Part shown: positions 6,177-64,000 of the stretch, one piece after another
How the letters are laid out: each line of letters begins with the position of its first letter
How positions within the stretch are numbered: position 1 is the stretch's first letter
Translations under genes and position numbers: made by a program
The notes under the pieces: generated by a model
The model's database searches: none
Seen by the model: the letters and a program-made list of their open reading frames with translations, nothing else
What the model was told of the DNA's origin: nothing
Source: a virus
Lineage: Duplodnaviria; Caudoviricetes
Virus record (IMG/VR): IMGVR_UViG_3300031992_000012
Coordinates: 64,001 to 128,000 of that record
Direction: 5' to 3' (one strand)
Length of the DNA stretch: 64,000 nt

Positions 6177-6761
6177 ATGAACTGGAATGACATCAAGGCG
6201 ATTGCCAAGCGTGGCATCGCGCAGAAGAAAGCAACGGAAGAGAAGATTGAACGCACCAACGAGCTGATGACGAAGTACGCCGTAGCCAAGCAGGCCAGCG
6301 ACACGGTCGACCTTATGAAGCGCACCGCCGAGATGCTGCGGGGCAAGATGCCGGCGCCAAAGCTGGGCAGCGACCCCTGTCTCCGCTCCCTGCGTCGCAA
6401 GCTCATAGCGGCCAAGCACGCCAACGACGGCTCCGACAGTTTCCAACGCGTTGGAAAATTGATACATGGGTTTATCAAAAGAGACCCGCTTGCCCGCATC
6501 GCCAAGATAGCGGCCGACCGCGATGAACGGCTTGAGAAGGCCAAGTACAAGGAGGAGCAGGCGAAGACGGTCACCGAGGAAACCCGCAAGGGACAGCCCG
6601 AAAAACCCACCACGGCCCCGATGGAAGGTCAGCCGCATGACGGCGAAGGCCGTGAGGTAACTTTTGGCGACGGTCGCACAGTCACTTTCAAGAGCGCCTC
6701 CGAACGTCAGCAATGGCTCGCCAACAAGGTAAAGGAAGCATACAAGAGGGCCGGGATGTGA
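6177..6761 (+). CDS. K-x-A motif helical protein (putative internal head protein)
   Basis: MNWNDIKAIAK start; KQAS, KIAA and KSAS motifs. Confidence 0.7.
   Translation: MNWNDIKAIAKRGIAQKKATEEKIERTNELMTKYAVAKQASDTVDLMKRTAEMLRGKMPAPKLGSDPCLRSLRRKLIAAKHANDGSDSFQRVGKLIHGFIKRDPLARIAKIAADRDERLEKAKYKEEQAKTVTEETRKGQPEKPTTAPMEGQPHDGEGREVTFGDGRTVTFKSASERQQWLANKVKEAYKRAGM
6440..6457. repeat. dispersed palindrome, copy 1
   Basis: TTTCCAACGCGTTGGAAA inside a CDS. Confidence 0.85.
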
Positions 6762-7465
6762 TTGACTGGGTCGGCGTAAAGCAGGCGGCCGACCCGCTCT
6801 GGAACCCTGAGCCCAACGTCCCGCCTGTATACAACAAATGGGTTCCTCGCCCCGCTTCCGGTTTTCACACGTTCGGAAGAGGCGACAATCTTATGGGGAT
6901 AGCCGACAGGTACGGTGTCTCTCATCGTCGTCTCGCTCTTGCCAATCCAACGCTTAGCCCGAACTCCATAAGGGAGGGTACCCGTGTAAACATTCCGATG
7001 AATGAGAGGGAATGGCTGATGAAGACTAAGGGCTTCGACCCGGAGGCCGTGTCCGCTCTTCCGGCAAATTTCGCAAAGGCCGTGCGGATGCAGGAGTCGC
7101 AGGACGGAAAGTACCTACGTCCGTTCGGCAACGCGTCGTCGGCCAGGGGCATCTACCAGATGCTGCGTGACAGGTTCAACATAACCAAGTCGCGCCACCC
7201 CGAGATGAAGACGTGGAACCACGACGACCTGCTCACCGACAACAGGAAGGCACAGCAGGCCTTCGACTGGACGATAAAGGACAACATGCGCCGTTACAAC
7301 TACCTCAACGGGACACCAATGCCGGTCAACATGATGATCCGCTCCTGGCACCAGCCAGGCAACTTGTACAACCAACGCGCAATCGACTACGAGAAAGCCG
7401 TAATGAAGCAGATGGAGCTTATCCTGCAGGCGGCGCAGAACAACCAGGTCACCAAGCTCAAATAG
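6758..7465 (+). CDS. LysM-domain lytic transglycosylase/lysozyme-like protein with MIDW leader
   Basis: GTG start VIDWVGVKQAA; LysM (GDNLMGIADRYGVS..LALANP..IREGTRVNIP); QES..SSARGIYQM lysozyme-family motif. Confidence 0.8.
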   Translation: MIDWVGVKQAADPLWNPEPNVPPVYNKWVPRPASGFHTFGRGDNLMGIADRYGVSHRRLALANPTLSPNSIREGTRVNIPMNEREWLMKTKGFDPEAVSALPANFAKAVRMQESQDGKYLRPFGNASSARGIYQMLRDRFNITKSRHPEMKTWNHDDLLTDNRKAQQAFDWTIKDNMRRYNYLNGTPMPVNMMIRSWHQPGNLYNQRAIDYEKAVMKQMELILQAAQNNQVTKLK

Positions 7466-7528
7466 CTAAAAAAGAACCTGCTTCGAGTAATAATATTGTA
7501 GGAGGCAAGTTAGCAGCTTCCCTCCTGC
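7465..7528 (+). promoter_or_regulatory. putative phage promoter motif plus GTTA-loop hairpin
   Basis: GCTAAAAAA..GTAATAAT followed by GGAGG-CAAGTTAGCAGCTT-CCTCC; similar elements at four other loci. Confidence 0.55.
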
Positions 7529-7572
7529 GTCATGGCGGTACCCTTTGTGCTGCCGCCATTAAAGGTTTTACT

Positions 7573-7607
7573 GACCGGGGTTTCACAAACCCCGGTCTTT
7601 TTATTTT
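7573..7607 (+). terminator. intrinsic terminator
   Basis: GACCGGGGTTT-CAC-AAACCCCGGTC plus T tract. Confidence 0.8.
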
Positions 7608-10617: not shown

Positions 10618-10641
10618 GATTTTCCAACGCGTTGGAAAATC
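10618..10641. repeat. dispersed palindrome, copy 2 (perfect 24-bp)
   Basis: GATTTTCCAACGCGTTGGAAAATC, intergenic. Confidence 0.9.
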
Positions 10642-19539: not shown

Positions 19540-19585
19540 AAAACCCTTTTTTAGCGTAATAATCAATTAAGGGGACTTTATCCCC
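19535..19585 (+). promoter_or_regulatory. putative phage promoter motif plus hairpin
   Basis: GCTAAAAAA..GTAATAATCAATTAA followed by GGGGA-CTTTA-TCCCC. Confidence 0.55.
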
Positions 19586-26215: not shown

Positions 26216-26392
26216 ATGACCCACCCAAACCGCAACAGTGTGAAGGCAAGCGTTCACCCCGGCTTCTGGTGCTGGGGCTGCGACGCCGCTATTGTTTCGG
26301 CGGGAAGGAAATGCCCCGTCTGCGGCACAAGAAATTACAACGCGTTGAAAAATCGTCTAAGCGTGTCCGACATAAGGAGAATAAAGGAATGA
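26216..26392 (+). CDS. 58-aa zinc-ribbon protein (absent from the ORF track)
   Basis: Translated by hand: MTHPNRN..GFWCWGCDAAIVSAGRKCPVCG..; ATGA-coupled to the next gene. Confidence 0.7.
   Translation: MTHPNRNSVKASVHPGFWCWGCDAAIVSAGRKCPVCGTRNYNALKNRLSVSDIRRIKE
26335..26352. repeat. dispersed palindrome, copy 3
   Basis: TTACAACGCGTTGAAAAA inside a CDS. Confidence 0.75.
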
Positions 26393-26958
26393 TTGATTGG
26401 ATAGCAGTGAAGGAAGCGATGTCCGACGACGCGAAGGGCGCTATTATGGGTGCTCTTGTAGGAGGCGGTCTCGGCGCGGGCGGCGGAATACTGTTCGGTA
26501 AGAACAAACTTGTAGGCGGTCTTGTCGGCGGCGGTGCAGGAGCTGTTTCCGGCGGTCTGGCGGGGTATGGTCTCGGACGCGCGCATAGGCTGGGGAAGGA
26601 ACGCGACATAGCCCGGCTCAAGGGTGATTTGAAGGACATTTACTACAAGAACATGGACTCCCCGTCACAGCGGTTCCATTTAGGTGAAAACGGTGGCTGG
26701 AAGGACGATTATTCCCAGGAGGACTGGGAGCATAACTTGAAGGGAGACCTCGGCATAATAGAGGACACATTCGCCCTCCATCCGGACAACATAAAGAAAA
26801 TCCGCGAACGGCTGAAGGAGCGGTTGACGATGACCTACAACCACAAGCTCAATGGCAATAATTATGACCTTGAGCGCAGGATAAGCCCCGAGGACTTCCA
26901 CGCCGAGAGGATAGGAAGGGACAAGCATGTACGCTATTTCCGCAACAAATACGAATAG
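26389..26958 (+). CDS. glycine-zipper membrane protein with MIDW leader
   Basis: MIDWIAVKEA followed by GAIMGALVGGGLGAGGG / GGLVGGGAGAVSGGLAGYG. Confidence 0.8.
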   Translation: MIDWIAVKEAMSDDAKGAIMGALVGGGLGAGGGILFGKNKLVGGLVGGGAGAVSGGLAGYGLGRAHRLGKERDIARLKGDLKDIYYKNMDSPSQRFHLGENGGWKDDYSQEDWEHNLKGDLGIIEDTFALHPDNIKKIRERLKERLTMTYNHKLNGNNYDLERRISPEDFHAERIGRDKHVRYFRNKYE

Positions 26959-26967
26959 GAGACGGAG

Positions 26968-27876
26968 ATGATAGACTGGACTGCCGTTAAGAAAGCAGCC
27001 GAGTTCACCCCGGAGGCCCTGGCCGACCTTGACTACTACAAGGACTGGGAGACCCCGGAGGAGAAGGCTGAGGACGAGAAGACATCCAAGCGCAACATCA
27101 AGCAGTACCAGGAGTGGTACAAGGACTACACGCCGAAGGAGCTTCTCAAGAGATACGCGGAGTCCGAAGACTACAACGACCGTCTCAAGCGCAGGCTGGA
27201 CGAGCTTAACTACACCATAAGCAGTCATTTCCCGGTGGACAGCACGATGGACCCGGCACTCCGCATAGACAACATGTCCCGCGAGAAGCTTCTGCAGAAC
27301 GCCAGGCGTGTCCTTAGCTGGCAGCGATACGTGACAAAGGGAGCGACCGACGTCGCCGTCTCCCCCATATACTCCAACTTCGACAAGTACGCCGACCACG
27401 GTGTAAGCGACAAGGACTGGAAGCTTCTGACGGACTCCTTCGCGGAAGCCCGCAAGGCGTCACCGAACATCGAAGGCTACGGCGACGAGTGGGAGGCCGA
27501 CGAGGCAATCACAAACGGCATACCGCTGCGCATAACAGCCGGTGGCAAGGACATCGGGGCGGCCTCCTTGCATGGCGGAAGGAGCGAAATCCGCATAGAC
27601 GAGCTGGGACTCCTGCCGGAACACCAGGGCAAGGGATACGGGCGTGAGGCGCTCAAGCAAATAGCCCGTCACATCCTTGAACGCCGCAAGAGCGAATGGA
27701 CGTATCCGTGGGGTCTCGACTACCACAAGGGCATCGGCATAGGCGCCGACACGGCGAACACCCGCGCCAACCACCTTTACAGCTCGTTCGGCTTCAAGCC
27801 CGTCGAGAAGGAGGATACTTATATCAAGTACCACATGCCTTTCGACAAGGCCAGAAAGATAACAGGCGTGAAATGA
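26968..27876 (+). CDS. GNAT acetyltransferase with MIDW leader
   Basis: MIDWTAVKKAA; IDELGLLPEHQGKGYG; N.RA.HLYSSFGF. Confidence 0.85.
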   Translation: MIDWTAVKKAAEFTPEALADLDYYKDWETPEEKAEDEKTSKRNIKQYQEWYKDYTPKELLKRYAESEDYNDRLKRRLDELNYTISSHFPVDSTMDPALRIDNMSREKLLQNARRVLSWQRYVTKGATDVAVSPIYSNFDKYADHGVSDKDWKLLTDSFAEARKASPNIEGYGDEWEADEAITNGIPLRITAGGKDIGAASLHGGRSEIRIDELGLLPEHQGKGYGREALKQIARHILERRKSEWTYPWGLDYHKGIGIGADTANTRANHLYSSFGFKPVEKEDTYIKYHMPFDKARKITGVK

Positions 27877-28448
27877 TAGACTGGATAGCGGTCAAACAGG
27901 CTTCGGTCACCCTGGAGGACATACCGACCCTCCCGGACGACCCCGCCATGTTCAGCCCGGACGACAGGAAGCTCCTTGAGAGCACCCTGCGCGTCATCGG
28001 AGACGCTTCCGGCGAGCCCTTCGAGACTCATGAAGAGATGACCGGCGAGCTCGCGAGAATAGTGACGCGAGGACATCCTTACCGCATAATGAGCGACGGC
28101 AAGCCTGCCGGCATAGCCGTCACGGGCGGTTTCAGCCACTGGGACGACGACAATAAGAAGTTGTACATCGGCAAGTCGATTGACGAGCTGGGCCTTCTGC
28201 CGGAGTACCAGGACAAGGGCATAGGCAAGGAGGCAATAAAGCTGCTTGTCCGCGACATGCTGAAGGACAAGCCGAAATGGCTTCATATAGCGCACGCCAA
28301 CGCCAACCCCAGGGCCGCGCATGTGTACGGCGAGATGGGGTTCGCCCACCCGATGAAGTGGGACGAGAGGGCGACCTCCCTTCATATGAAGGGAAGCGAC
28401 GCCAGAAGGAAAGTCAAGGAGTGGTTCGCCGGAGAGGCGGACGCATGA
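27873..28448 (+). CDS. GNAT acetyltransferase with MIDW leader
   Basis: MIDWIAVKQAS; IDELGLLPEYQDKGIG; NPRAAHVYGEMGF. Confidence 0.85.
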   Translation: MIDWIAVKQASVTLEDIPTLPDDPAMFSPDDRKLLESTLRVIGDASGEPFETHEEMTGELARIVTRGHPYRIMSDGKPAGIAVTGGFSHWDDDNKKLYIGKSIDELGLLPEYQDKGIGKEAIKLLVRDMLKDKPKWLHIAHANANPRAAHVYGEMGFAHPMKWDERATSLHMKGSDARRKVKEWFAGEADA

Positions 28449-28477
28449 CTCTTTTTTAGCTGCTAAAATAAGGGCTT

Positions 28478-28519
28478 CAAAGGCCGTGGATCGACTTGAA
28501 TCCACGGCCTTTGTTTTTT
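28478..28519 (+). terminator. intrinsic terminator
   Basis: CAAAGGCCGTGGA/TCCACGGCCTTTG plus T6. Confidence 0.8.
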
Positions 28520-28577
28520 GCTAAAAACACCCCTTTTTCGTGTAAGAATCACTTAATGGGAGAAGTTAATTCCCCCG
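28520..28577 (+). promoter_or_regulatory. putative phage promoter motif plus GTTA-loop hairpin
   Basis: GCTAAAAA..GTAAGAATCACTTAA followed by GGGAGAA-GTTAA-TTCCCCC. Confidence 0.55.
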
Positions 28578-28624
28578 ATTTTATTTTTAGTTCACACTCA
28601 AAAAACAAAAAGGAGAAAACAATT

Positions 28625-30088
28625 ATGAGTGACTGGAAAACCGATTACGACAACGCCGTCGCGACTGTGCAGGACATCCTCTTCAACAAGTACAAGCTCG
28701 ACCCGAACCAGTACTACAGATGCTGCAGCGGCGTCGACTCCTATTTCGGTTCGCACAACATCAAGAAAATCGACAAGTGCATAAACTTGCCCGGGTGGCA
28801 CATCTACGCCTGGTTCACGCTCTCCGGCCCGGAGTACTACGCTACCATGGGAGAGGCCATCGAACGCTTCATGATGATTCCGTCGTACAAGGATGTCGCG
28901 TGCGACCGTTTCGACCCTCTCGCCCCCGCCCGTGGCATCATCTGGAAAGACCCGAAGGGTCTCGCCAACAAGCATTTCCCCTACTACAATCCAGGCGTCA
29001 AGAAGGACGGGCGCAACTCGTCTGCCGACGACGGGCGGTCAACGTCGAAGAACGTCGACAAGAAGAGATACTCCTGCGATGATGATTGTCCGAACAAGTA
29101 CACGGACGTCTGCAATGACTGCCCGTTCAACCCGTCTTCCAAGCGTGACGAAGTCTGCACAGAGGGGCGCAGGGAAGACAAGGACAAGTCCGCCGACAAG
29201 GTCGCCGAGCTTCAGCGAATTTTGTTCGACGAGCACAAGCTCTCCCGCACTGAATACCTCCCCACCAAAATCGGCGTCCGCTCCGACGACCTCCACTTCA
29301 ACACCAGCAAACGCATCGAGACGTCCAACGACGGCGCCCATTTCCTCGTGTCCGGCTGGTTCGGCTGCGAGCTGTTCTCGGACCTCGACGAGGCCGTCAA
29401 GCGCTTCCTCGAGATTCCGCCGCTCCGCGACGTCCATCTCAGCGACTATCACGGATTCGCATCGCCCTCGGTTTCCTGGAAAGACCCCAGGGGCAAGATC
29501 AACGAAAAGTTCCGCTACCTCGACCCGTGCGCGCCGCGCCATACCGATGTCCACGAGACTTGTCATAACCCCTGGCAGTCTCAGGAGGAGCTCGACAACA
29601 TGTTCGCACGCCAGGGCATTGTCCGGAATCACGCTCTCAAGGGCAAGCTATCCAGGCTCGACACGCTTCTCGGGGTCACGCCCCGCCGCCAAAGCGAGAC
29701 ATGGCTCTGGAACCACGGCTTCGTCCCGGCTTCCGAGTCCTTCCGCTTCACGCCCGACGCGCACAACGAACCGTCCAACGCCATCTCTCTGGAGACCGAC
29801 AAATGGACACGGGACATCGACGTCGTCTGCAAGACCAACAGCGAACTGACATTCAAAATCAAGCTGACCGTACTTCTCATCGACGGGAAGTGGCGTGTCG
29901 ACTGCGAAGTCGTTGCCGGTGAAGACCCCCGGACTACCGTCTACTTTAACGCCCGAGTCAAGATTGGCGAGCGGTGTTTCAAGAACGCGGAGCTCCATGA
30001 CACCGTCGAGGAGGCCTTCGGAGCCCTGCATGCCAAGATCGAGGCTGTCTACGACAAGCTCTCCGACATCGAGGAGGCGCACGAATAA
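28625..30088 (+). CDS. multidomain hypothetical protein with an internal duplication
   Basis: Two copies of an ILF..KL....Y / WF / EA..RF..IP...DV / WKDP.G domain; the C-terminal domain resembles the next gene. Confidence 0.8.
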   Translation: MSDWKTDYDNAVATVQDILFNKYKLDPNQYYRCCSGVDSYFGSHNIKKIDKCINLPGWHIYAWFTLSGPEYYATMGEAIERFMMIPSYKDVACDRFDPLAPARGIIWKDPKGLANKHFPYYNPGVKKDGRNSSADDGRSTSKNVDKKRYSCDDDCPNKYTDVCNDCPFNPSSKRDEVCTEGRREDKDKSADKVAELQRILFDEHKLSRTEYLPTKIGVRSDDLHFNTSKRIETSNDGAHFLVSGWFGCELFSDLDEAVKRFLEIPPLRDVHLSDYHGFASPSVSWKDPRGKINEKFRYLDPCAPRHTDVHETCHNPWQSQEELDNMFARQGIVRNHALKGKLSRLDTLLGVTPRRQSETWLWNHGFVPASESFRFTPDAHNEPSNAISLETDKWTRDIDVVCKTNSELTFKIKLTVLLIDGKWRVDCEVVAGEDPRTTVYFNARVKIGERCFKNAELHDTVEEAFGALHAKIEAVYDKLSDIEEAHE

Positions 30089-30471
30089 TGCTGGAGAATC
30101 TCGAGCAAATCTTCGACCTGCCATTCTCCCGGAAGAGCGAAATCTGGCTGTGGCAGCACGGCTTCGACCCGCTGGTCCACCATTACGGAATCGACCAGTG
30201 GGTGCGGAAACTGACCCTCGGCGAACCGCCGCACGGGTTCATCGTAATCGTCGTCGCAAGACGAACCGGGGAGGAGTGGACCGTCTCCTACGAGGTCCGC
30301 CCCTCCGATTATCCCAACATGGACGAGACCGTCTTCCGAAAGGCCAAGGTCAATCCCTACAACGCCTATACAAGCAGGCGCCACAAGGATGTCTTCGATT
30401 GCTTCAAGGAAATCCAGGACGAGTTCCTGCGAGTGCACGGCGTTTTCAGCAATGTACAGGAGTGCCAATGA
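30088..30471 (+). CDS. hypothetical protein (paralog of the preceding C-terminal domain)
   Basis: SEIWLWQHGF vs SETWLWNHGF. Confidence 0.75.
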   Translation: MLENLEQIFDLPFSRKSEIWLWQHGFDPLVHHYGIDQWVRKLTLGEPPHGFIVIVVARRTGEEWTVSYEVRPSDYPNMDETVFRKAKVNPYNAYTSRRHKDVFDCFKEIQDEFLRVHGVFSNVQECQ

Positions 30472-30830
30472 AGGAAGTTAAAATCTACGAATGCGAGAAG
30501 TGCGGTTATAGGTCGGAAAGCAAGGGGCAGATGGAGGACCATGAGAAGGCCCACATGGCCCTCTGGCGTTTCCAGTTCAACTGGCCCAAGTTCAACATGG
30601 AGAAGGACAACGCCTTTGTCGAGTACGAGAAGGTGGACCTTGTCCCGGCCTTCGTCGACGAAGTGTTCGTCTGGGACCGCAACAACAGCGTCTCCCTCGC
30701 CATGTACGTCACCGAGCCGGACGAGAAGAAGGCCGTCGAGTTCTTCGAGAAGAAAATCGACGAGTACCTGCGCCTGCTCAACAGCATGAAAGCGGTCTGC
30801 TTCAGCCGCCTGGAGGACAGTCTGGGATGA
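30468..30830 (+). CDS. C2H2 zinc-finger family protein
   Basis: YECEKCGYRS..KGQMEDHEKAH. Confidence 0.8.
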   Translation: MKEVKIYECEKCGYRSESKGQMEDHEKAHMALWRFQFNWPKFNMEKDNAFVEYEKVDLVPAFVDEVFVWDRNNSVSLAMYVTEPDEKKAVEFFEKKIDEYLRLLNSMKAVCFSRLEDSLG

Positions 30831-31168
30831 GCATTGCCTATGACATGCACGGGGGAAGCGACGAACTTGATCACAACCATGTTCACGGAGTGATGATCGA
30901 GGCGAGGCTCAAAAAGGACTTCCATATCGACTACTCCATCCGCTACGTGATCGTCGGGGGCAATGAGAAGTTCAACGAGGTGTCTGTGAAGACTAGCTGC
31001 GAGTACGACTTCGTGGACACCCTCGTCTTTTTCAGAATCCTGACGACCAGCAACCCAGTCGACATAGCGGAAGGCAGGAGAAGGTTGACGACGTGCGTAG
31101 CCGTCAACCTCGCCCGGGCCGCCACGCATGTCAGCAGGATAATACACGAAGCCAAGGAGCCGACATGA
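30827..31168 (+). CDS. hypothetical protein (finger-less family relative)
   Basis: Paralog of the next ORF (DFHIDY / GRRRL..ATHVSRII). Confidence 0.7.
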   Translation: MSIAYDMHGGSDELDHNHVHGVMIEARLKKDFHIDYSIRYVIVGGNEKFNEVSVKTSCEYDFVDTLVFFRILTTSNPVDIAEGRRRLTTCVAVNLARAATHVSRIIHEAKEPT

Positions 31169-31479
31169 GCGCAGCCGAAAGAAACTGGTTCTTTGAAACG
31201 GCGGACCACTGCGCCATACAGTCGGTCACCGTCAGCCCGGACTTCTCAGTTGACTACGACGTGGAGGCAACGAACGTCTCGGTGTCCAAGGGCCGCCTCA
31301 ACAAGGTCTTCAGCGACAGTGGCCGCTACGCCCCTTACATGGTCAAGCTATCCATAACCACCTACGACAACGAGCAGGACATGCGCCGTGGACGGCACAA
31401 GCTGTTTGCGGCGCTGTCTTCCAGAATCGGCCGCATGGCGACAGAACTAAGCGAAATCATAAAAAAGCAAGGAGGCTAG
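31165..31479 (+). CDS. hypothetical protein (finger-less family relative)
   Basis: DFSVDY / GRHKL..ATELSEII. Confidence 0.7.
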   Translation: MSAAERNWFFETADHCAIQSVTVSPDFSVDYDVEATNVSVSKGRLNKVFSDSGRYAPYMVKLSITTYDNEQDMRRGRHKLFAALSSRIGRMATELSEIIKKQGG

Positions 31480-31480
31480 A

Positions 31481-31822
31481 ATGTACGCGTTAATAACGGT
31501 AAGCGAAGCCCTGCTTGACGACGGGAAGTTCGTTTTCGACATCAAGCGCAAGCGGGACATCGTCTATTTTGACAAGCTCCGCCTGGGGAAACCGTTCACG
31601 GTTGAGCGAAGCGTATCCAACATCCCGCCGAATGAACGGTCGAGGAAAGGCGGATACAAGTACGACATATCCGACAAGGTATGGCGGATCTGGGTCGACG
31701 CCAAGGACATCGACAAGGGCATGGCCGCTCTTACGGAGCACATCAAGGCGCATTTCAACGCGCGGCTGAAAAAGCTGGACGAGGGAATATTCCCAAGGAA
31801 GGACTGCAAATGGACGGACTGA
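31481..31822 (+). CDS. hypothetical protein (finger-less family relative)
   Basis: AAGGAGG RBS; WRIWV..KDIDKGMAAL. Confidence 0.7.
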   Translation: MYALITVSEALLDDGKFVFDIKRKRDIVYFDKLRLGKPFTVERSVSNIPPNERSRKGGYKYDISDKVWRIWVDAKDIDKGMAALTEHIKAHFNARLKKLDEGIFPRKDCKWTD

Positions 31823-32139
31823 CGGAAAACCGCAGGATTTTTCTTAACGACGAGAAGGGCGTGTTCAAATTCTCTGTCGAGGCTTCTCTCGTGACGGACG
31901 ACAAATTCCCGCCGTTCTACAGAGTATGGCAGAACAACGCGCACGCTCTTCCAATCACCGTCAGATGGAACCGCCAGTGGGGCGTGCGTGTAAGGACGGG
32001 GGACGAGGAAAAGGGGAAGAGGCTGCTGATAATAGCGGCCCTTAAGGACACGGAGGACATGTTCATGAATCTTTCAAGACTTCTTAAAGGAGAACCGCAG
32101 AATGAAGATAACAACAATAACGGAACAGGACATTCTTAA
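31810..32139 (+). CDS. hypothetical protein (finger-less family relative)
   Basis: WGVRV..GDEEKGKRLL. Confidence 0.65.
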   Translation: MDGLTENRRIFLNDEKGVFKFSVEASLVTDDKFPPFYRVWQNNAHALPITVRWNRQWGVRVRTGDEEKGKRLLIIAALKDTEDMFMNLSRLLKGEPQNEDNNNNGTGHS

Positions 32140-33505: not shown

Positions 33506-33514
33506 GGAGGCCCA

Positions 33515-36134: not shown

Positions 36135-36137
36135 GCG

Positions 36138-36184
36138 AGCCCCCTTCCTTTGCCGGGAAGGGGGCTTTTCGTTATTTCTTTTTT
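36138..36184 (+). terminator. intrinsic terminator
   Basis: AGCCCCCTTCC/GGAAGGGGGCT plus T-rich tail. Confidence 0.75.
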
Positions 36185-36215
36185 AATCTGTATATTAAGC
36201 CAAGGAGGACAACAA

Positions 36216-37237: not shown

Positions 37238-37284
37238 AAAAAATTCTGAGAAATCTTGCTTTCGTCTTTTGACGAACTATCTTA

Positions 37285-37316
37285 ATGGCTGTTCCAAAAG
37301 GGACGGCCATTTTTTT
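37285..37316 (+). terminator. intrinsic terminator-like hairpin
   Basis: ATGGCTGTTCC/GGGACGGCCAT plus T tract. Confidence 0.65.
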
Positions 37317-37340
37317 AGCTAGTAGAAAGGAAGAAGCAAG

Positions 37341-38528
37341 ATGACAGAACAGAACAACGACTACAATTGGACTGAGTTTCGCGCCATTGAGGAAGTGGCG
37401 CCTGCACCCGCATACCTAAACGACCAGGCGCTTCGCGGACTTGTAAGGGATATCGAACGCACACATTTCAGGAGGACCGCGCGGGAGTGGGCGGCGAACG
37501 TCACGGCGGGGGACACCCCGCAGGAATGGACGGTGGACGTAACGGCGGGCGACGCCGTGATAGAGGACACGGGCACGGCCGATGCGGCATTTGCCGCCGG
37601 CGACTTCTTCCGCGTCCGCAACCGCGAGGAAGGCGTAGGCAACGGCATCTACGTACCACGCCCGCTTATCAAATGGGCCGGCGGAAAGCAGAGGCTCATG
37701 CCGGAAATCGTCAAACGCCTCCCTGGCGGAATCGGCAAGCTGGACGGAAGGATAACAAAGTATGTGGAGCCCTTCCTCGGCGGCGGCTCCGTGTTCATAG
37801 AGATGCTGCACCATCCGTTCAGCGACCGGATAGTGTCCGACATAAACCCGGCCCTCATCAACATGTACCAGACCGTGAAGGAAGCGACCGACCGGGTGTT
37901 CTCGCGCCTGTACGAATTGGAGCGTGCGTGGAACGACCTTGATACGGAAGAGGAAAGAAGGGCCTGCTACAACGGCGTGCGTGACTCATTCAACACCTAC
38001 AACCCGCAGAGCGACATGGGAAGCCCCGAATGGGCGGCGGCCTTCATCTTCCTCAACAAGACATGCTACAACGGCCTGTACCGCGTAAACTCAAGGGGGT
38101 TGTTCAACGTTCCCATGGGAACCAACACTCACCTTGACTTCCGCGCCGGCGAGTACATGGGCTTCCGCTACGCCGTCAGGAACGTACGGTTTGAGTGCAG
38201 GGACTACATGGAGTGCCTGGACGACATCGACAGCCATACCTTCGTGTACATCGACCCGCCGTACCGCCAGCTTCCCGGAAAGAACAGCTTCACCGGCTAC
38301 ACGCCTAACGCCTTCACCGACGTCGACCAGGAGGGCGTGGCGCGCTTCTGCGACCTTATAACCGACAAGGGCGCAAAGTTCCTGCTGAGCAATAGCGACA
38401 CAGGCGACGGGTACTTCGAGAGACTTTACGAACGCTTTACCATCGAGCATATAAAGGCGCCACGCAGCATCAGCCGTGACGGCGCTACCCGAGTCAAGAC
38501 GGGCGAGATACTTGTGAGAAACTACTAA
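37341..38528 (+). CDS. dam: Dam-family DNA adenine methyltransferase with an N-terminal extension
   Basis: KWAGGK, YVEPFLGGGSV, LNKTCYNGLYRVN..G.FNVP.G, DPPY, LSNS. Confidence 0.92.
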   Translation: MTEQNNDYNWTEFRAIEEVAPAPAYLNDQALRGLVRDIERTHFRRTAREWAANVTAGDTPQEWTVDVTAGDAVIEDTGTADAAFAAGDFFRVRNREEGVGNGIYVPRPLIKWAGGKQRLMPEIVKRLPGGIGKLDGRITKYVEPFLGGGSVFIEMLHHPFSDRIVSDINPALINMYQTVKEATDRVFSRLYELERAWNDLDTEEERRACYNGVRDSFNTYNPQSDMGSPEWAAAFIFLNKTCYNGLYRVNSRGLFNVPMGTNTHLDFRAGEYMGFRYAVRNVRFECRDYMECLDDIDSHTFVYIDPPYRQLPGKNSFTGYTPNAFTDVDQEGVARFCDLITDKGAKFLLSNSDTGDGYFERLYERFTIEHIKAPRSISRDGATRVKTGEILVRNY

Positions 38529-38540
38529 GGAGGAAGAAGA

Positions 38541-39410
38541 ATGAACGAAAAGAAAGTTGCGGAAGAAATCGAGCGCGCAATAGACAATGTTATGGGCAGG
38601 TTCGCAAAGGAGCTGGCGGACGTCATCGTGGAGGCAATCTTCCCGAGCAGCACCATTGGGTCGATGTCGCCCAAGGACGCCAAGGGGCTCCGTGAGTTAA
38701 TTGAAGCGGTGGCCGACCGTCTGGAGGAGGTGGAGAAGGCGGAAGCTGAGCCAATCAAGGCGGATTTCGTCGACGGCATGCAGTCGGAGGCGGACGAAGT
38801 CTGGGCGGAGGAGCACCCGGACGAAACGCCAAAGGACAACACCTGGACAGGCGTTCACAACAGCCATCTGGAAGCTGCCCTCAAGCAGGAGCGCAAGGAG
38901 GAGATGAATAGGAAGCCCGACAAGACAGCGTGGAAATGCGGCTCCCCGTATTTAGCCGAACACGCAGACAACCCGCTTGACTCCCTGGCGGAGGACATGA
39001 GCAGGCGCAAACCGCGCGCCGAGGTTGGTGGGACTACCGATCGTTTCGGGCACAAACAGTGCATGAACTTCGCTGAGGCCATGAAGTCGCTGGAGCAGGG
39101 AATAGCGGTACGACGCTCCTCATGGCCTACCTACGACTTCATCTGGAAGCCAAAGCAGATACCGCTGCCTGAAGGATGCAGGTTCTCGCAAGTTGACCCC
39201 GTCATGAAGATGGCCATAAGCATACGCCCGGGCAATACATTCTTTGATTCCAATATCCTTGAGTACCGCCTTGAGTTCGACGAGAACAGGAAGCTCCAGG
39301 GGCGCGTCATAGCGGGGTTCGATTTCATGGGCATCGACGGCGGAGACCGCGACTGGGAGGAGTTCTTCGTTCCCGGCAAGGATTCTCCGGTTTGCGATAA
39401 AACTGAGTGA
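38541..39410 (+). CDS. protein with a C-terminal DUF2829/Tad2-like domain
   Basis: MNFAEAMKSLEQGIAVRRSSW...DRDW. Confidence 0.6.
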   Translation: MNEKKVAEEIERAIDNVMGRFAKELADVIVEAIFPSSTIGSMSPKDAKGLRELIEAVADRLEEVEKAEAEPIKADFVDGMQSEADEVWAEEHPDETPKDNTWTGVHNSHLEAALKQERKEEMNRKPDKTAWKCGSPYLAEHADNPLDSLAEDMSRRKPRAEVGGTTDRFGHKQCMNFAEAMKSLEQGIAVRRSSWPTYDFIWKPKQIPLPEGCRFSQVDPVMKMAISIRPGNTFFDSNILEYRLEFDENRKLQGRVIAGFDFMGIDGGDRDWEEFFVPGKDSPVCDKTE

Positions 39411-39487
39411 TAGTATCTTATGTAGTCGCCACGGCACCCGTGGCATTCCTCTGGGTTTTTATTAGCTAGTAAAAAAGGAAGAAAGCG

Positions 39488-40021
39488 ATGAAAAAGGAAA
39501 AGAAGGAACAGGATGTCGTAAGCCACGTCATGATCAACGGCCATGACTGCACCGAAGTCGTCAAGGAAGGCGAAGGCAAGAAGCTGTTCGCCAAGCTCCG
39601 CAAGGCCGCCAAGATCGAGGACGAAGACACGGTCATCGAGTGCGCGGAGCAGATTCTCGGAATGCTTCCGAAGGACAAGAAGGAAATCAGCGTCAAAGAA
39701 GCCGTCGAGAAGCTGGACGACAAGGAATGGGACATGCTGGCCGACCAGCTTGAAGAAAGCGCCCCCGTCGACGCCCGCACGGCTGATTCCATCCGCAAGT
39801 CCGTAAAGGCCCAGAAGCAGAACCGCGACGCCAGCGGCAAGTTCGTCAAGGGCAACAAGCCTGAGAAGTGCTGCAAGGGCAAGTGCAAATGCGCCAGGAA
39901 AGCCCAGTTCGGCAAGCCAATCCGCAAGAAGGAAGAGGAGATCGACGACGCCTACGTCGACGCCTTCCTGCGCCGTATGGCCGCTTTGGACGCAATCCTC
40001 AGTCTCCTCTGCGAGGACTGA
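39488..40021 (+). CDS. hypothetical Lys/Glu-rich protein
   Basis: RBS; RDASGKF motif. Confidence 0.75.
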   Translation: MKKEKKEQDVVSHVMINGHDCTEVVKEGEGKKLFAKLRKAAKIEDEDTVIECAEQILGMLPKDKKEISVKEAVEKLDDKEWDMLADQLEESAPVDARTADSIRKSVKAQKQNRDASGKFVKGNKPEKCCKGKCKCARKAQFGKPIRKKEEEIDDAYVDAFLRRMAALDAILSLLCED

Positions 40022-40044
40022 GCAGTCCATGACTAGATAGTGGT

Positions 40045-40089
40045 AAAACCCATCAGGATATATATTGTCCTGATGGGTTTTCGGTTTTT
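40045..40089. terminator. hairpin, possibly a bidirectional terminator
   Basis: AAAACCCATCAGGA/TCCTGATGGGTTTT. Confidence 0.65.
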
Positions 40090-40107
40090 ACAACGCGTTG
40101 AAAATTT
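40085..40107. repeat. dispersed palindrome, copy 4
   Basis: TTTTTACAACGCGTTGAAAATTT upstream of the virion module. Confidence 0.8.
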
Positions 40108-40121: not shown

Positions 40122-40721
40122 ATGCCTTCAGAACTAGAAGCAAGGATTGAAGCCGTCATGAAGCGGCTTAGCAGCAAGGTGGCGTTCGCGCCACAGGGCA
40201 GCATGCCTGCCCCGGACCCGACAATGGGTGGCGCGGTTCCTCCGATGGACCCCGCTGCGATGGGCGGCGCCCCTATGCCTCCTATGGACCCGGCCGCAAT
40301 GGGTGGTATGCCGCCTATGGACCCAGCTGCGATGGGTGGTATGCCTCCTGCTGATCCGGCCGCTATGGGCGGTATGCCTCCGATGGACCCTGCCGCGATG
40401 GGCGGCGCTCCTGCCGAGCCGGCTCCTCCGGGATTGCAGCAAGGGGGAGGCGACCCGATGCAGATGCTCTCGGACGTCAACGACAAGATTGACGCCCTTG
40501 GCGACCTTGTGCTGAAGCTGTGCCGCCACTTCAACGTCTCCCTCGCGGAGGATGAAGGCGGTGCCGAACAGCTTGTCAATGACGAAGAGCTTGACACGAT
40601 GGAAGCCGCCAAGGCAGAGGACGCGGCCGCGCAGGAACCCCTGTCCGACCAGGCGCAGGAAGCCATTGGCGGAAACGACTTCATAAAGAAGCAGCTTGAA
40701 GGTCTTGGAGGCGGTTACTAA
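40122..40721 (+). CDS. Pro/Met/Gly-rich repeat protein (putative head-assembly protein)
   Basis: SKVAF motif followed by five PPMDPAAMGG-type repeats. Confidence 0.75.
   Translation: MPSELEARIEAVMKRLSSKVAFAPQGSMPAPDPTMGGAVPPMDPAAMGGAPMPPMDPAAMGGMPPMDPAAMGGMPPADPAAMGGMPPMDPAAMGGAPAEPAPPGLQQGGGDPMQMLSDVNDKIDALGDLVLKLCRHFNVSLAEDEGGAEQLVNDEELDTMEAAKAEDAAAQEPLSDQAQEAIGGNDFIKKQLEGLGGGY
40220..40410 (+). repeat. coding tandem repeat (~30 nt x5)
   Basis: Repeats encode PPMDPAAMGG with synonymous variation. Confidence 0.85.
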
Positions 40722-47801: not shown

Positions 47802-49897
47802 AGAAGATAAGCCCCATGGCGGAAATGCGGATGGTTGACACAATCCGTGCCGCCCGAGAATCCAGTGGCCGGGGAACGAACCCCAGCGAGGCCGTGGCGA
47901 AACTCGCCATGGAGCAGAACATGTCCACCGAACAGGCGGCCCGCATCTGCGAGGCCTTCAACAAGCTCGCGTCCATAGACCACCTGTCCAGTGATCAAGG
48001 GGACAGGGCGGCCAACTTCCCGCTGGCCGACAGCTCGGCGGTGCGGAAGATTATGCGCGACTCGCTCAAGATCGCCAACGAGCCGTTCAAGTTCCGCCGT
48101 ACGATAAACGACGATTTGCCTTTGCCCAAGATGACGGACAAGCAGGCTATGGAAATGATCTACAAGCCGACCGAGGAAGAGCGGAAGATGCTCGACACGG
48201 CGACAGACCGCATGCAGTATCTCGCGGACTGGGAGAGGATGCAGAGCGGAGTCAAGGCCATGAAGGTCGCCTCGGAGGAGGCGCGTCTCGGCGAGCTGAT
48301 GTTCGGCGAGGCTTTTATCAAGTTCGGGAACAAGGTCGCGTCCATGGATGACAGGGCCGTCGACAACATGGCCCGCTACGCTGTCTACAACTATGGAAAG
48401 GACGGTGTGAATTTTCTAACGGCGTTGGAAAATTTGACAGGCCGTGAGATCGACAAGAGCAGCCGCCCCTGCATGAAGACAGGGAGCGACGCCGAGAACG
48501 AAGTCGACAGGCTCATGTTCATGGCGGACAACGCCAAGGCGCTCAAAGTGGCGGCCGACCTTGTGATCGACGGGAATAAAATACCTTTTGGGTACTCGAT
48601 GTCTATTTACGACCCGAACCTCAATCCAGCGCAAGTAAACCAGGCGTCGAGTGACCTTACAGCTAAAAGAAAGGCTCTACAGAACATAAACTCTAACTAC
48701 GCCTATCAGGTTAACGAGGATTTGGCAGAGAAGCTGGATCGTCCCGACCTTACCGGAGCCGGCTCCGAGGCTGTCAAACAGTGGAATAGCCGGCTGAATA
48801 CTGTTGGGAAGCTAAAGGACACGACGTTTAATGAATCGCAGCGTGACACCGTTGAGGACACTAAGAAGATTCAGAACGCCATAAGCAAGATCAGGGCTGA
48901 GTTTGAGAAAAACGAGCTTGGTACTGTCCAGGACACCCAGCACATCCGTAATGAGATGGGTCATACCCAGGCTCAGCACGACCAGGCCACACAGGCCACT
49001 CGGAACAGCACCGACGCAATCCGTGTCAGCCTTGATAACGCCAGGGCGTTGTTCGACCAGCGGCAACAGCCCGGAAAGCTGATTACGGAAGCTGACAGAA
49101 ACCAGGTCGAAGCGGCCAAGGCCCGTGACGCGGCGGCCGAGCAGAGGGCCATAGACAACGCCCGTGCTACCGGTCGTTTGAGCACCGTCGAGGACAACGC
49201 CCTTAGGACGGAGGAAACAAGAGAGCTGGAGGCAGAGCAGAAATACCAGCATGCCCAGGCCGTCAAGGACTACGAGAACGCCCTTGCCGGTCGAGGGGAT
49301 ACAGAAGCCAAGCGCATGCTGCGCCAGTATGAGCGCGCCGAGGCCGACCGTGCATGGATGGAGGAGGAACGCCTCCGCAAGTCACGCGTCGACAATTTCA
49401 ACAGGCTGAAGGAACAGGGCGACCGCACGTCCAAGGCCCTGCAGGAAATGGCGAACAACACGCTCGCCAACACCAAGAGCGTCCTCAGCGGCGCCGTCGG
49501 CATAATGCAGAAAGCCGACGCGATCCGTCAGGCCCTCACACCGGAACAGCGTTCGGGAAACGCGGCCGCGCGCCCGCTCTCCAACGCGGCCACCAAGTAT
49601 CTTGAGAATCTCCGCCTCCACGACGTCTTCGCAAAGACATACCTTTCCGACCCGTACCTGCACCAGTATTCGCCGTCGGAAGTTGCGGAAGCCTTCAATA
49701 TCGTCTATGAGGTCGCCCCCGAGCTTGTGCGCCACGGGAGCAACCCGCATATAATCGGCGCCCTTATCAGGAAGTACCTCGCCAACACCAACCAGCTTGA
49801 CCCGCTCGAAATCCGCGACCTCACCTCGACAGAGAAGGACCGTGTGGACACGATGCTCAAGCAGGAGCAGCTCGAGGCGATTAAGAGGGGCAAGTAA
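47798..49897 (+). CDS. coiled-coil K-x-A-rich virion/head-core protein
   Basis: ATGA overlap; KLAM, KLAS, KIAN, KVAS x2, KVAA. Confidence 0.7.
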   Translation: MKKISPMAEMRMVDTIRAARESSGRGTNPSEAVAKLAMEQNMSTEQAARICEAFNKLASIDHLSSDQGDRAANFPLADSSAVRKIMRDSLKIANEPFKFRRTINDDLPLPKMTDKQAMEMIYKPTEEERKMLDTATDRMQYLADWERMQSGVKAMKVASEEARLGELMFGEAFIKFGNKVASMDDRAVDNMARYAVYNYGKDGVNFLTALENLTGREIDKSSRPCMKTGSDAENEVDRLMFMADNAKALKVAADLVIDGNKIPFGYSMSIYDPNLNPAQVNQASSDLTAKRKALQNINSNYAYQVNEDLAEKLDRPDLTGAGSEAVKQWNSRLNTVGKLKDTTFNESQRDTVEDTKKIQNAISKIRAEFEKNELGTVQDTQHIRNEMGHTQAQHDQATQATRNSTDAIRVSLDNARALFDQRQQPGKLITEADRNQVEAAKARDAAAEQRAIDNARATGRLSTVEDNALRTEETRELEAEQKYQHAQAVKDYENALAGRGDTEAKRMLRQYERAEADRAWMEEERLRKSRVDNFNRLKEQGDRTSKALQEMANNTLANTKSVLSGAVGIMQKADAIRQALTPEQRSGNAAARPLSNAATKYLENLRLHDVFAKTYLSDPYLHQYSPSEVAEAFNIVYEVAPELVRHGSNPHIIGALIRKYLANTNQLDPLEIRDLTSTEKDRVDTMLKQEQLEAIKRGK
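48412..48434. repeat. dispersed palindrome, variant copy
   Basis: TTTTCTAACGGCGTTGGAAAATT (1-nt insertion, 1 mismatch). Confidence 0.5.
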
Positions 49898-54907: not shown

Positions 54908-54988
54908 TGCGGTGTAGAGCAGTGGTAGCTCGCTGGCCCCATAAGCCAGGTCATTAAGTCGTGCGTTCGATTCGCACCACCGCTACCA
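54908..54988 (+). tRNA. tRNA-Met(CAT), initiator-like but atypical
   Basis: Acceptor TGCGGTG/CACCGCT plus ACCA; D-arm GAGC/GCTC; anticodon arm CTGGC-CCCATAA-GCCAG; T-arm GTGCG-TTCGATT-CGCAC. Confidence 0.85.
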
Positions 54989-55941: not shown

Positions 55942-56361
55942 GTGACGTCAAGGGATGTCCTGAAAGAAAGGTTCAGGCTCCTTCTGGGTGAGGCGGCCGC
56001 CGGTGTAGGTGAATCAATGCACCGGGTGGTCGCCGCTTCGTATTCCCTGGGAGTGAAGTACTCCATTCCGGAGGCGATCGAATTTTTCAACGCGTTGGAA
56101 GATCCGACCAAGGTCCCGGGGTGGCTGGACTATCTCCCCGAAGAAGTGGAGTGCGAGTTCCCGGTAAGGGAGAAATGCTTCGACTGTTTTTATGTAAGAC
56201 TGTGCGCGGCCAGCGCGGCCGAAGGCGTGACAAGGGAGGCTCTGCTGATGGACGCCTACGAGTACATGCCCGAGGATTTCCACACCAAGCCTGAGTGGGG
56301 TATCGGTCTTCTTATGGATGCAGCCGATTCGTACAGGGAGCTAAAGGATTTGGAAGCATGA
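55942..56361 (+). CDS. hypothetical protein
   Basis: GTG start after GGAGG. Confidence 0.65.
   Translation: MTSRDVLKERFRLLLGEAAAGVGESMHRVVAASYSLGVKYSIPEAIEFFNALEDPTKVPGWLDYLPEEVECEFPVREKCFDCFYVRLCAASAAEGVTREALLMDAYEYMPEDFHTKPEWGIGLLMDAADSYRELKDLEA
56083..56102. repeat. dispersed palindrome, copy 5
   Basis: TTTTTCAACGCGTTGGAAGA inside a CDS. Confidence 0.75.
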
Positions 56362-61284: not shown

Positions 61285-61359
61285 CGGAGACAGGACGGCC
61301 AGAATAAACCGGCCGGGGCTTGAACAGGCTCCGGCCGAACACCAACGGAATAAGTAAAA

Positions 61360-61860
61360 ATGCCTGACAACACGTATTCTTCGATATTCGGAACATCGAC
61401 CACCCCGGTCGCCCTTTCCCTCGGCAAGCGTATCCTGACAATCGCCGGCGACAACAACACGTCATACAAGCTGGCTGTCAACAGCCTCCGCTACACCTTC
61501 TCCCGTACCATGACCCCCTACTACCCGCTGAACGCCGCCGATATCGGCAAGATTCTCGTCGCGGGCGAACCGGTCGGACAGCTCACGCTGACCTACCTCA
61601 TGGGCGTCGGCACGAATGTCACGGCTTTCCTGAAGAAGTTCAGCGACGTCTGCAGCATCGACAGCAACAGCATGTCGATTGACGTCGGCACGAACAGCGA
61701 CTGCGGCAACAACGCCACCAACACATTCAACGTCAACCAGAAGTTCACCTTCACCGGCATGCTGATTACCTCGGTGTCCGGCGATGTGACTCGTTCCGAA
61801 CGCGGTAACCTCTGCGTTGGCACGGTCACCATGTCGTTCATGGACATGGTAGCCCAGTAA
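61360..61860 (+). CDS. tail tube protein
   Basis: 166-aa beta-rich ORF immediately after the sheath. Confidence 0.65.
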   Translation: MPDNTYSSIFGTSTTPVALSLGKRILTIAGDNNTSYKLAVNSLRYTFSRTMTPYYPLNAADIGKILVAGEPVGQLTLTYLMGVGTNVTAFLKKFSDVCSIDSNSMSIDVGTNSDCGNNATNTFNVNQKFTFTGMLITSVSGDVTRSERGNLCVGTVTMSFMDMVAQ

Positions 61861-61995
61861 GCTTGTCATCTCACATTTGTATCTTCTTCCCGGCGGGTAT
61901 CACACCCCGCTGCAACCGAGGTGACAATCCCCCCGCCAGCGGTGGCTTTTCCTCCCTTTTCCCACCGCTGACGGGTTTTTCTTTAACGGAGCCTT

Positions 61996-64000
61996 ATGAA
62001 TACCACAGCAACAGCGAAACGCTTCTATCAGAACACAACGATGCTGGGCGGCTCACCGTCTGTTCCCGCCGCCATTGAGTTGGAATGTGTTGTCGTGGCG
62101 CAACTGACAGGGACGAACGGCTATGTCCTGAGACGCGCCGAGGGCCCCGTTGTCCCCCAGGGAGGACTTATAATCGGCGTGGACGGTTCTTCGCTCATGC
62201 CTTATGGAACAGGCGTGTCCACGACAGGAGTCCCTTACCCTCCGGGTACAAGGGTCAGGGTCGTGGAAGTCCCTATCGCCGCCGACGCAGGCTCGGTAGG
62301 GCGTTCAGGAGCGTTGCAGATTACCGGCGTGTGCAACGAGTCCCCGGCACCAAATACAAGCTTCTACCCGGTGTGGAAGATGGATGCGGATGGTCTTGAC
62401 ACTAGCGAGTATGACAACGCGCTATTTGGATACGCAGTCGCCGACAAAGTGGATCGACTGCGTGGAAAGCCGAGTGATTTGACCCCTGGAGACTGGGGCG
62501 TGTTCGGCTTTATGAAGAACAATATTTTTGTCGGCGGGTGCAGGACGTCAATTGAGGGGAGCCCCTACGCAGGACTGCACATGTACGCCGACGACTCCAC
62601 AGTGATATTCAACAAGGGTCTCAAGTATGTCGAGGACAGTCCCGCGTCCCGCAGGGCGGAGATACTTGACGTCGACGGCCGCTCCGTCGACATGGAGATG
62701 CTGGCCGACGACTTCATCGACGCCGCAGGCGTCTCAAGGGAAGCTCCAACGACACCTGCCATAGACGAAGCGTTCACCTCCCCGGCTGACACTGAAGTGA
62801 GACTGCCTGGAACGGAACTACCACGCTGGCATGAGGTTAATCTGCGTGGTGGCGCGGTTGGCGGAAAGATTTTACAACGCGTTGGAAAAAGGGAAAGCGA
62901 CACGCTCTCCCCGATAGTCACCGATTTCACAGGCAACGACGGCGTCTTCTATAAAGGTTCGATACACAGCCTTACCTTCTCCCGTTCCTTTGAACTTCCG
63001 CTTCTGGAATACACAAGGGAACTGGACAGCACCGAACCGGAAACGCCGGACGACACAGGGAACTCGCCCGACCCGGCCGGCTCGCTTGATTTCGAGGGGT
63101 ACGCGTCGCTATATGCAGATTTGCTGTATGAGCTTATGCGCGTGCGTTTTGCAGAACGCTACTGGGCGAAGCTGAGAAGACGCACAAAGGAGTGGACAGC
63201 CCTGGGACCCAAGGAAGTAGCGGAAAGAATGGCAAGGGCCATGACGAGAGACGCCCGTCTTCCAAAGATTGAAGACGGCGCCCCGGCCTATCAGGACGAC
63301 CTTGTTCCCGTGACCGACCCGCTTGTCGACGACGACCTGGAAATGCGTCTGGCAAGGCTTGAGTCCTACATTCACCTGTCGCAGACGGGCTCGCTAGTCC
63401 TGTCGGACTCCCGTGGTTCGGAAATAAGGCTGGAAGGGGGCAACATCACGATTTCCCCGGCTGTCGACATGAGGCTTGTCCCGGGACGCGACATGACCGT
63501 TCTCGCCCCACGGACACTGTCCATTACAGGCGGCAACCGTGTCGAGCTTAACGCTGACAGCGGGGAGTTGGACATACACGGAAACAAGAATGTCGTCGTG
63601 TCGGCGGAGGGCGTGCTTACGATGGAATCCCGCGACACGTCGAACGTCGCTTTTGCGGACTATGACAAGAGGAACGCAGGCGGTGGAGGTGTAATCATAC
63701 GTAGCGCGACAGGAACCCATGTCATAGGCGCCAGCGTCAGGCTTGCCGTACAGGGGCCGACGGACCGCGAGGAGGACGGCGTGACGCCTTTCGGCGGCGG
63801 CGCAATCATACTGGACGCCGGCGCATCGCCCCTTTGCCTGATGGGCGACAGCATAAGCGAGCACGCCGACAGGGACATCTGCATAGTGTCCGGCGCCAGC
63901 GGCTCGGGTATTGTAATCAACCCGTCCGGCACGACCGTGGCCGGTGATTCGTTCGTCGCATGCGTTGGCTCCGCCCTGTTCGGCGGTGAGGCCGAGATGC
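61996..64000 (+). CDS. baseplate hub/spike (gp5/VgrG-like), 3'-truncated
   Basis: Translated by hand from ATG 61996 (MNTTATAKRF..YPPGTRV.., DLTPGDW); later beta-helix-like SYIHLSQTGSLVLSDSRGSEIRLEGGNITIS; no stop seen before the window end. Confidence 0.6.
   Translation, partial: MNTTATAKRFYQNTTMLGGSPSVPAAIELECVVVAQLTGTNGYVLRRAEGPVVPQGGLIIGVDGSSLMPYGTGVSTTGVPYPPGTRVRVVEVPIAADAGSVGRSGALQITGVCNESPAPNTSFYPVWKMDADGLDTSEYDNALFGYAVADKVDRLRGKPSDLTPGDWGVFGFMKNNIFVGGCRTSIEGSPYAGLHMYADDSTVIFNKGLKYVEDSPASRRAEILDVDGRSVDMEMLADDFIDAAGVSREAPTTPAIDEAFTSPADTEVRLPGTELPRWHEVNLRGGAVGGKILQRVGKRESDTLSPIVTDFTGNDGVFYKGSIHSLTFSRSFELPLLEYTRELDSTEPETPDDTGNSPDPAGSLDFEGYASLYADLLYELMRVRFAERYWAKLRRRTKEWTALGPKEVAERMARAMTRDARLPKIEDGAPAYQDDLVPVTDPLVDDDLEMRLARLESYIHLSQTGSLVLSDSRGSEIRLEGGNITISPAVDMRLVPGRDMTVLAPRTLSITGGNRVELNADSGELDIHGNKNVVVSAEGVLTMESRDTSNVAFADYDKRNAGGGGVIIRSATGTHVIGASVRLAVQGPTDREEDGVTPFGGGAIILDAGASPLCLMGDSISEHADRDICIVSGASGSGIVINPSGTTVAGDSFVACVGSALFGGEAEM
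62868..62890. repeat. dispersed palindrome, copy 6
   Basis: GATTTTACAACGCGTTGGAAAAA inside a CDS. Confidence 0.8.

Follow-up and report, generated by a model that had tools for sequence, protein, structure and literature searches.

The palindrome and its genomic setting

The window considered in this work is a stretch of 64,000 nucleotides (nt), corresponding to bases 64,001-128,000 of a 205,081-base-pair (bp) IMG/VR virus record (IMGVR_UViG_3300031992_000012) from an uncultured rumen jumbo phage, referred to below as G0. The element under study is a short palindrome with the core CAACGCGTTG, which recurs both within and between the genes of this phage. The G0 record has a guanine plus cytosine (GC) content of 56.4% and is about 94% complete, and its genes are nearly all located on the + strand. 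The gene coordinates were obtained with a simple in-house codon-usage gene caller and, due to this, individual start codons may be off. The encoded proteins include split multisubunit RNA polymerase beta/beta'-like proteins, a Dam-type methyltransferase, a ligase-like protein, RecA-like and RuvC-like proteins and pieces of a family-A DNA polymerase. Megablast searches with 12 kilobases (kb) of G0 gave no match among GenBank phages, where no close relative is present, and scans of viral contigs with two conserved proteins retrieved only a 113-kb contig (G2; 38.7% GC), whose proteins are 25-57% identical to their G0 counterparts, and one 18-kb contig lacking the motif. Most of the other relatives (designated by L numbers) are represented by windows of 8-22 kb.

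The exact core is found six times in the window (at 6444, 10625, 26338, 40091, 56088 and 62875), all at the positions reported in an initial annotation of this DNA, whereas the mean count in dinucleotide shuffles is 0.13 and a count of 6 was never reached. The copies, which are unstranded features, and one look-alike are as follows (window coordinates; aa, amino acids):

6437..6460, unstranded: exact core, in the gene for a 194-aa protein (6177-6761), 46% along the gene, in the frame F-Q-R-V-G-K
10618..10641, unstranded: exact core, perfect 24-bp palindrome, intergenic, 33 nt upstream of the gene for a 98-aa protein
26331..26354, unstranded: exact core, 127 nt after a DNA-ligase-like gene (label from PHROGs) and 42 nt before the next gene
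40084..40107, unstranded: exact core, intergenic, 58 nt before an operon with an RNA polymerase subunit gene
56081..56104, unstranded: exact core, in the fast-evolving gene for a 139-aa protein (55942-56361), read as F-N-A-L-E in the codon alignment
62868..62891, unstranded: exact core, in the gene for an 883-aa protein (start at 61996), read as L-Q-R-V-G-K in the codon alignment
48412..48433, unstranded: non-palindromic, doubtful look-alike whose core carries a 1-nt insertion, without a counterpart in L040 or G2

The copy at 10618 is thus a perfect 24-bp palindrome, as had been noted, but the sequence at 48412 (genome 112418), which was earlier counted as a variant, has been set aside as doubtful because of its inserted base, its lack of palindromic symmetry and the absence of a counterpart in L040 and G2. 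The initial annotation had also placed four exact copies in coding sequences, with QRVGK and NAL each read twice. This description holds for the QRVGK copies at 6444 and 62875 and for the NAL copy at 56088, whereas the copy at 26338 reads N-A-L only if a weak open reading frame (ORF) for a zinc-ribbon-like protein of 58 aa (26216-26392), at whose 3' end it would then lie, is real. The copy at 40084..40107 lies directly 3' of a terminator-like hairpin (40045-40081), and G2 also has a copy at this position (site 102877).

Over the whole G0 genome there are 11 exact copies of CAACGCGTTG, where about 0.2 are expected from base composition, and three further copies with one mismatch and correct flanks (genome 34865, 139029 and 193680) bring the total to 14 sites. 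A T-rich left flank and an A-rich right flank are present at all copies. The alignment of 26 copies from five phage lineages gives the consensus RATTTT(C/A)-CAACGCGTTG-(G/T/A)AAAATY, with an essentially invariant centre of 10 bp and a symmetry that spans about 24 bp. The gene containing the one-mismatch copy at 34865 (genome 33439-35526; L007:6439-8526) also contains LAGLIDADG and intein-splicing domains.

Selective constraint on the DNA and conservation in relatives

The initial annotation placed the constraint on the DNA, and comparison with a codon-shuffled null had been set beforehand as the test by which this claim could be refuted. The coding DNA contains 6 copies versus 0.66 after synonymous codon shuffling within genes, and none of the 300 shuffles reached 6. 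Further, this single DNA word is read in three reading frames in G0 genes, giving Q-R-V, N-A-L or T-R-L, and it is found with identical core and flanks in relatives whose GC contents range from 38 to 57% (at least seven lineages). There are 7 exact copies and 1 variant in the 113 kb of G2, two copies in L060 (46.5% GC), and one copy each in L040 (42% GC), L047 (54% GC), L104 (38% GC), L105 (40% GC) and L108 (57% GC).

Conservation at synonymous positions in relatives, which the initial annotation had proposed to check, is likewise seen, as the in-gene sites are kept at orthologous positions in three genes. One example of this kind is the gene containing the copy at window 56088. Although its 139-aa product shows only about 15-30% identity among G0, L060 and L040, all three retain GAA-TnT-TnC-AAC-GCG-TTG-GAn at the site. 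For the gene with the copy at 62875, the 2.6-kb codon alignment between G0 and L060 shows 57% nucleotide identity and identical residues share the same codon in only 32% of cases; however, the site is the sole 24-nt window of this alignment that is identical at 24/24 positions, and the ten best windows all overlap it. A 37%-identical homologue of the 883-aa protein, known from its protein sequence only, reads ILQRVVK here, which fits the permitted variant TTGTAAAA. L104 and L105 (38-40% GC) retain the copy that G0 has in its RecA-like gene (genome 182274), whereas the copy in L108 is instead intergenic, about 1.3 kb upstream of the RecA-like gene and about 1.7 kb from the position orthologous to that in G0. 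Based on the excess over codon shuffles, the use of several reading frames, the presence of the same word in relatives of differing GC content and the orthologous in-gene sites, it is clear that the selective constraint acts on the DNA itself.

Two other origins of the repeated word were rejected. Spread of a mobile mini-insertion is not seen, as the codon and protein alignments show no insertion or deletion exactly at the site and the positions are orthologous. A link to restriction is also not indicated, as ACGCGT is neither avoided nor enriched outside the motif (75 observed versus 61-69 expected in G0; 10 versus 7-15 in G2).

Spacing and placement of the sites

The sites in G0, present at a density of about one per 13 kb, are more evenly spaced than random (coefficient of variation 0.52, P about 0.01; minimum gap 4.2 kb, P about 0.01), and those in G2 are likewise even (P about 0.04-0.06). 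They also favour non-coding DNA. When the doubtful sequence at genome 112418 is counted together with the 14 sites, 6 of 15 are intergenic in a G0 genome that is 8.7% non-coding (P = 0.001), and 7 of the 8 sites in G2 are intergenic (P = 4e-6). Four of the intergenic G0 copies directly follow strong hairpins with T-runs, and copies precede RNA polymerase subunit operons in both G0 and G2. The placement of the site before the gene for a Met/Pro-repeat protein is identical in the two genomes. Several of the G2 copies are found 5-15 nt past a stop codon, and one G2 copy, as judged by eye, precedes rather than follows a terminator-like hairpin. The eight mid-gene copies in G0 lie on average at about 0.45 of the gene length, show no preference for gene ends, and are separated from the next gene start by 180-1779 nt. 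The placement in non-coding DNA where possible and in tolerated codons elsewhere, together with the relocation within the neighbourhood in L108, suggests that not only the exact place of a site matters but also that each region has one.

Some other features of these regions may be noted here. The repeat protein (window 40158-40721) consists largely of M-P-P-M-D-P-A-A-M-G-G repeats; it has no Pfam match, is kept in G2, and its gene lies directly upstream of an RNA polymerase subunit gene. A 13.75-kb segment of G0 (window 26338-40091; genome 90338-104091) has a copy of the palindrome at either end but is absent from the G2 contig, where a single copy lies between the ligase-like gene and the repeat-protein gene, together with a TnpB remnant; the boundaries of this segment may represent a module junction. 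The structural-gene region contains a solitary tRNA-Met (CAT) gene (window 54908-54988), which is followed by a terminator-like hairpin, and in a 98%-identical strain an IS605-type OrfB/TnpB gene (L061:4128-5159) is inserted between two genes that are adjacent in G0 (near window 57170).

Separate from the palindrome, G0 contains an asymmetric bipartite promoter-like motif, cTnAAAAc-N13-gcGTAATAAT, nearly all copies of which are intergenic and usually followed by a hairpin (window 7487-7494 and 19556-19563; genome 4942, 20223, 35544, 37246, 46455, 63124 and 153522). Its intergenic counterpart in G2 is of the GTTATAAT type. The palindrome shows no fixed geometry relative to the promoter-like motifs in either G0 or G2. 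Terminator T-runs in G0 are often followed by TTAGC-nn-GTA(A/G)AA just before a ribosome-binding site (e.g. window 4910-5017, 28449-28624, 37238-37340 and 39411-39487), which may be a second promoter-like class or a part of the terminator.

Probable docking sites for a symmetric protein

The pairing of the two arms, examined over the 26 aligned copies, is 73.8%, versus 74.2% with shuffled partners, and the covariation score is 0.079 versus 0.088. As the arms vary independently, the element is best understood as two half-sites on duplex DNA and not as a hairpin. The sites are probably docking positions on double-stranded DNA, about one per 13 kb, for a sequence-specific protein of two-fold symmetry, most likely a homodimer, each subunit of which would read one half-site, RATTTT(C/A)CAACG. 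We infer that a protein binds to these sites and that this protein is of phage origin. The phages of this clade would thus keep evenly spread sites, placed in non-coding DNA where there is room and otherwise accommodated by means of tolerated codons within genes.

With regard to the role of such sites, RNA polymerases moving along a genome in which almost all genes have the same direction would be stopped or insulated by a bound dimer. A genome-wide transcription barrier or boundary is the role that we tentatively and slightly favour, based on the one-strand gene layout, the positions at operon boundaries and the neighbouring terminators, and it would explain why intergenic copies lie at operon boundaries beside intrinsic terminators and before RNA polymerase operons. 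A genome-organising role, in which the sites serve for anchoring, condensation or as segregation landmarks, is about equally compatible with these observations. A bolder proposal, which we regard as rather unlikely, is that the sites punctuate the genome at even intervals and are read not by an ordinary repressor but by a core machine conserved in this jumbo-phage clade. A minimal phage RNA polymerase may ignore hairpin terminators, and the sites could then provide it with protein-roadblock terminators or insulators; alternatively, they could be landmarks for loading and anchoring during replication or genome compaction. This proposal would explain the zero sequence drift across lineages of 38-57% GC and, if true, would represent a genome-wide cis-element system of a kind not described for phages with their own RNA polymerase.

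Several observations weigh against the interpretation in terms of docking sites. No copy is present in three related windows, L107, L109 and L110 (12-21 kb each), and hence a part of the clade may lack the motif. If a bound protein acts as a roadblock, the conserved mid-gene sites would cut transcripts unless binding is timed, and the sites are placed differently in G0 than in G2 with respect to predicted promoters and terminators. The earlier proposal of binding sites for a dimeric protein is upheld as regards the symmetry and the two half-sites without pairing covariation; however, the binding protein itself was not found. A six-frame search of the 205-kb G0 genome gave no match to ParB_N (PF02195) at E <= 1, although control genomes were positive, and six-frame searches of G0 also did not detect HTH_3 or Sigma70_r4. 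A Pfam census of 162 small proteins yielded only one sub-threshold winged-helix hit. A candidate protein with tandem winged helices and a sub-threshold score (genome 45849-46427; isoelectric point 9.6) was not found in the DNA examined from the relatives. A further candidate, a protein with a zinc ribbon and a Cro/CI-like helix-turn-helix (HTH) (genome 189070-189612) that is syntenic in all lineages, was rejected because its putative recognition helix is free to vary, unlike the DNA word, which is invariant. Partial sites do occur upstream of the gene for this protein, but these are common words.

Two other proteins were considered as readers. The Dam-type methyltransferase encoded near the site at 40091 lacks a ParB domain and was rejected. 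A 244-aa protein (genome 134861-135595; L009:6861-7595) shows weak but correctly ordered hits to sigma-70 regions 2, 3 and 4 and is probably a divergent phage sigma-like factor; however, a symmetric site would not be accounted for by a sigma factor.

Alternative explanations

The element could act as a hairpin in RNA or DNA, i.e. as a terminator, an RNA processing site or a cruciform. The perfect copy at 10618-10641 would fold as RNA at -10.8 kcal/mol, and the positions of several G2 copies shortly after stop codons would be in accordance with this. However, this explanation is very improbable, as besides the lack of covariation between the arms, the position adjacent to the core is unpaired in 13 of the 26 copies and the copy at window 40091 reaches a folding energy of only -1.7 kcal/mol (z = +0.5), which is no better than shuffles. 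Further, the element is followed by A-rich sequence and not by a U-tract, its best-conserved part would be the loop and the top of the stem, and the conserved mid-gene copies would truncate mRNAs. Another alternative is that the palindrome is a promoter, or the site of a promoter-bound activator, for the phage multisubunit RNA polymerase or the sigma-like factor, serving middle or late operons. The phage encodes both the split beta/beta' subunits and the divergent sigma-like protein, intergenic copies follow terminators and precede gene starts by 10-58 nt (among them those of the two RNA polymerase operons in both G0 and G2), one unclustered site per approximately 13 kb fits one element per operon, and the right arm (T/G)AAAAT bears some resemblance to a -10 hexamer. 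However, a two-fold symmetry over about 24 bp, the location of eight G0 copies in the middle of genes (two of them conserved there in relatives), the existence of separate asymmetric, intergenic promoter-like motifs in both G0 and G2, and the presence of just 9 nt between the core and the ATG at genome 9689 all make it unlikely that the palindrome is a promoter.

The site could also be read by a host protein, in which case the phages would exploit or decoy a transcription factor or a nucleoid protein of their host. The failure of the G0 searches to find a phage-encoded reader and the invariance of the word across phage lineages, as expected with one conserved host factor, are consistent with this possibility, and the GC content of a jumbo phage that has its own replication and transcription can depart from that of its host. 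However, we consider it quite unlikely, since among 185,579 species genomes scanned for the 20-mer there were 42 single hits, scattered over unrelated taxa, with no regulon-like set and no relative of G0, although this is a weak test because the hosts are not identified. Lastly, if the palindrome were the target of a site-specific enzyme, it may serve as a nickase site, a site for loading of a clamp or helicase, a recombination hotspot or a modification site. In their density and conserved positions, the sites are similar to the localized nick sites of T5-like and phiKMV-like phages, the 13.75-kb segment specific to G0 lies between two copies (genome 90338 and 104091) where G2 has a single copy, and RuvC-like and RecA-like proteins are encoded by the phage. 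However, a symmetric site would be cut on both strands and ACGCGT occurs at the expected frequency outside the motif, and a target of this kind therefore seems improbable.

The sole multi-copy case in the species-genome scan was a repeated element in one Victivallales metagenome-assembled genome, which has G/C next to the core. At least 5 copies of this element, which contains TTTTTGCAACGCGTTGCAAAAA, are present, three of them within 620 bp, and the protein content of this genome is unrelated to the phage (element loci L068:3311-3934, L063:518-537 and L080:6392-6411).

Comparison with known repeat systems

Full-text literature searches for the 10-mer returned only unrelated primer or cloning matches, and nothing relevant was found in the literature on jumbo-phage palindromes or promoters. 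The closest descriptive match is the 17-bp dyad repeat TGTTCGG-NNN-CCGAACA of the Cluster O mycobacteriophages, whose reader and function are not known (Cresawn et al. 2015, PMC4351075). Like the palindrome described here, it is an invariant inverted repeat that occurs genome-wide, in and between ORFs, and is common to the whole cluster. By these features the palindrome can be placed among the dispersed dyad repeats of phage genomes, a class defined by description and not by a known mechanism. The Corndog genome is roughly 70 kb and the density of its repeat is thus much higher than that seen here. The G0 palindrome differs in being present about once per 13 kb, with a contiguous 10-bp core and A/T-tract flanks, in a jumbo phage with its own RNA polymerase, whereas the Cluster O repeat (34 copies in Corndog) has 7-bp arms and a 3-bp spacer with some strand asymmetry (PMC4351075).

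The initial annotation compared the palindrome with parS, matS and stoperator sites and suggested a check for a ParB gene. None of these analogies could be sustained at the level of sequence or reader, although some likenesses in distribution exist. The parS and matS sites, bound by ParB and MatP respectively, are also palindromes for dimeric proteins that tolerate in-gene positions and are invariant over wide distances. However, the parS consensus is a 16-bp palindrome of the TGTTNCACGTGAAACA type, which is not matched by the G0 consensus ATTTT(C/A)CAACGCGTTG(G/T)AAAAT, matS is likewise different in sequence, no ParB was found, and the sites in G0 are neither clustered near a partition operon nor confined to one domain. 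The KorB operators (OB) of plasmid RK2 are palindromes spread across the whole replicon, also far from promoters, and their dimeric reader acts at a distance (McLean et al. 2025, PMC11790492). KorB is a CTPase clamp of the ParB family that works together with a partner repressor at promoters, whereas G0 lacks ParB_N and its sites have an unrelated sequence and no fixed promoter geometry.

Stoperators are oriented with transcription and are found in temperate phages. Those of the Cluster A mycobacteriophages resemble the sites in G0 in their many copies across a phage genome, in and between genes (PMC9283540, PMC6550527). However, these are asymmetric sites that are read by a monomeric two-domain repressor (PMC9283540), whereas the G0 site is symmetric over about 24 bp and no repressor or integrase was recognised in G0. 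The protein bound at Cluster A stoperators halts elongating RNA polymerase, and by analogy this would be the favoured working model for the role of the G0 sites. Based on the defining features that were compared, the palindrome does not belong to the ParB/parS, KorB or stoperator families.

Significance for the jumbo-phage clade

The site described here is one of the few features clearly under selection in an almost unannotated jumbo-phage clade, and it can be used as a marker for members of this clade in metagenomes. The 24-mer, employed as bait, should retrieve a DNA-binding protein whose specificity has been frozen across very divergent genomes. If the sites are barriers or landmarks, then they would show how partitioning is achieved in a 200-kb phage genome that has its genes on one strand and encodes its own RNA polymerase.

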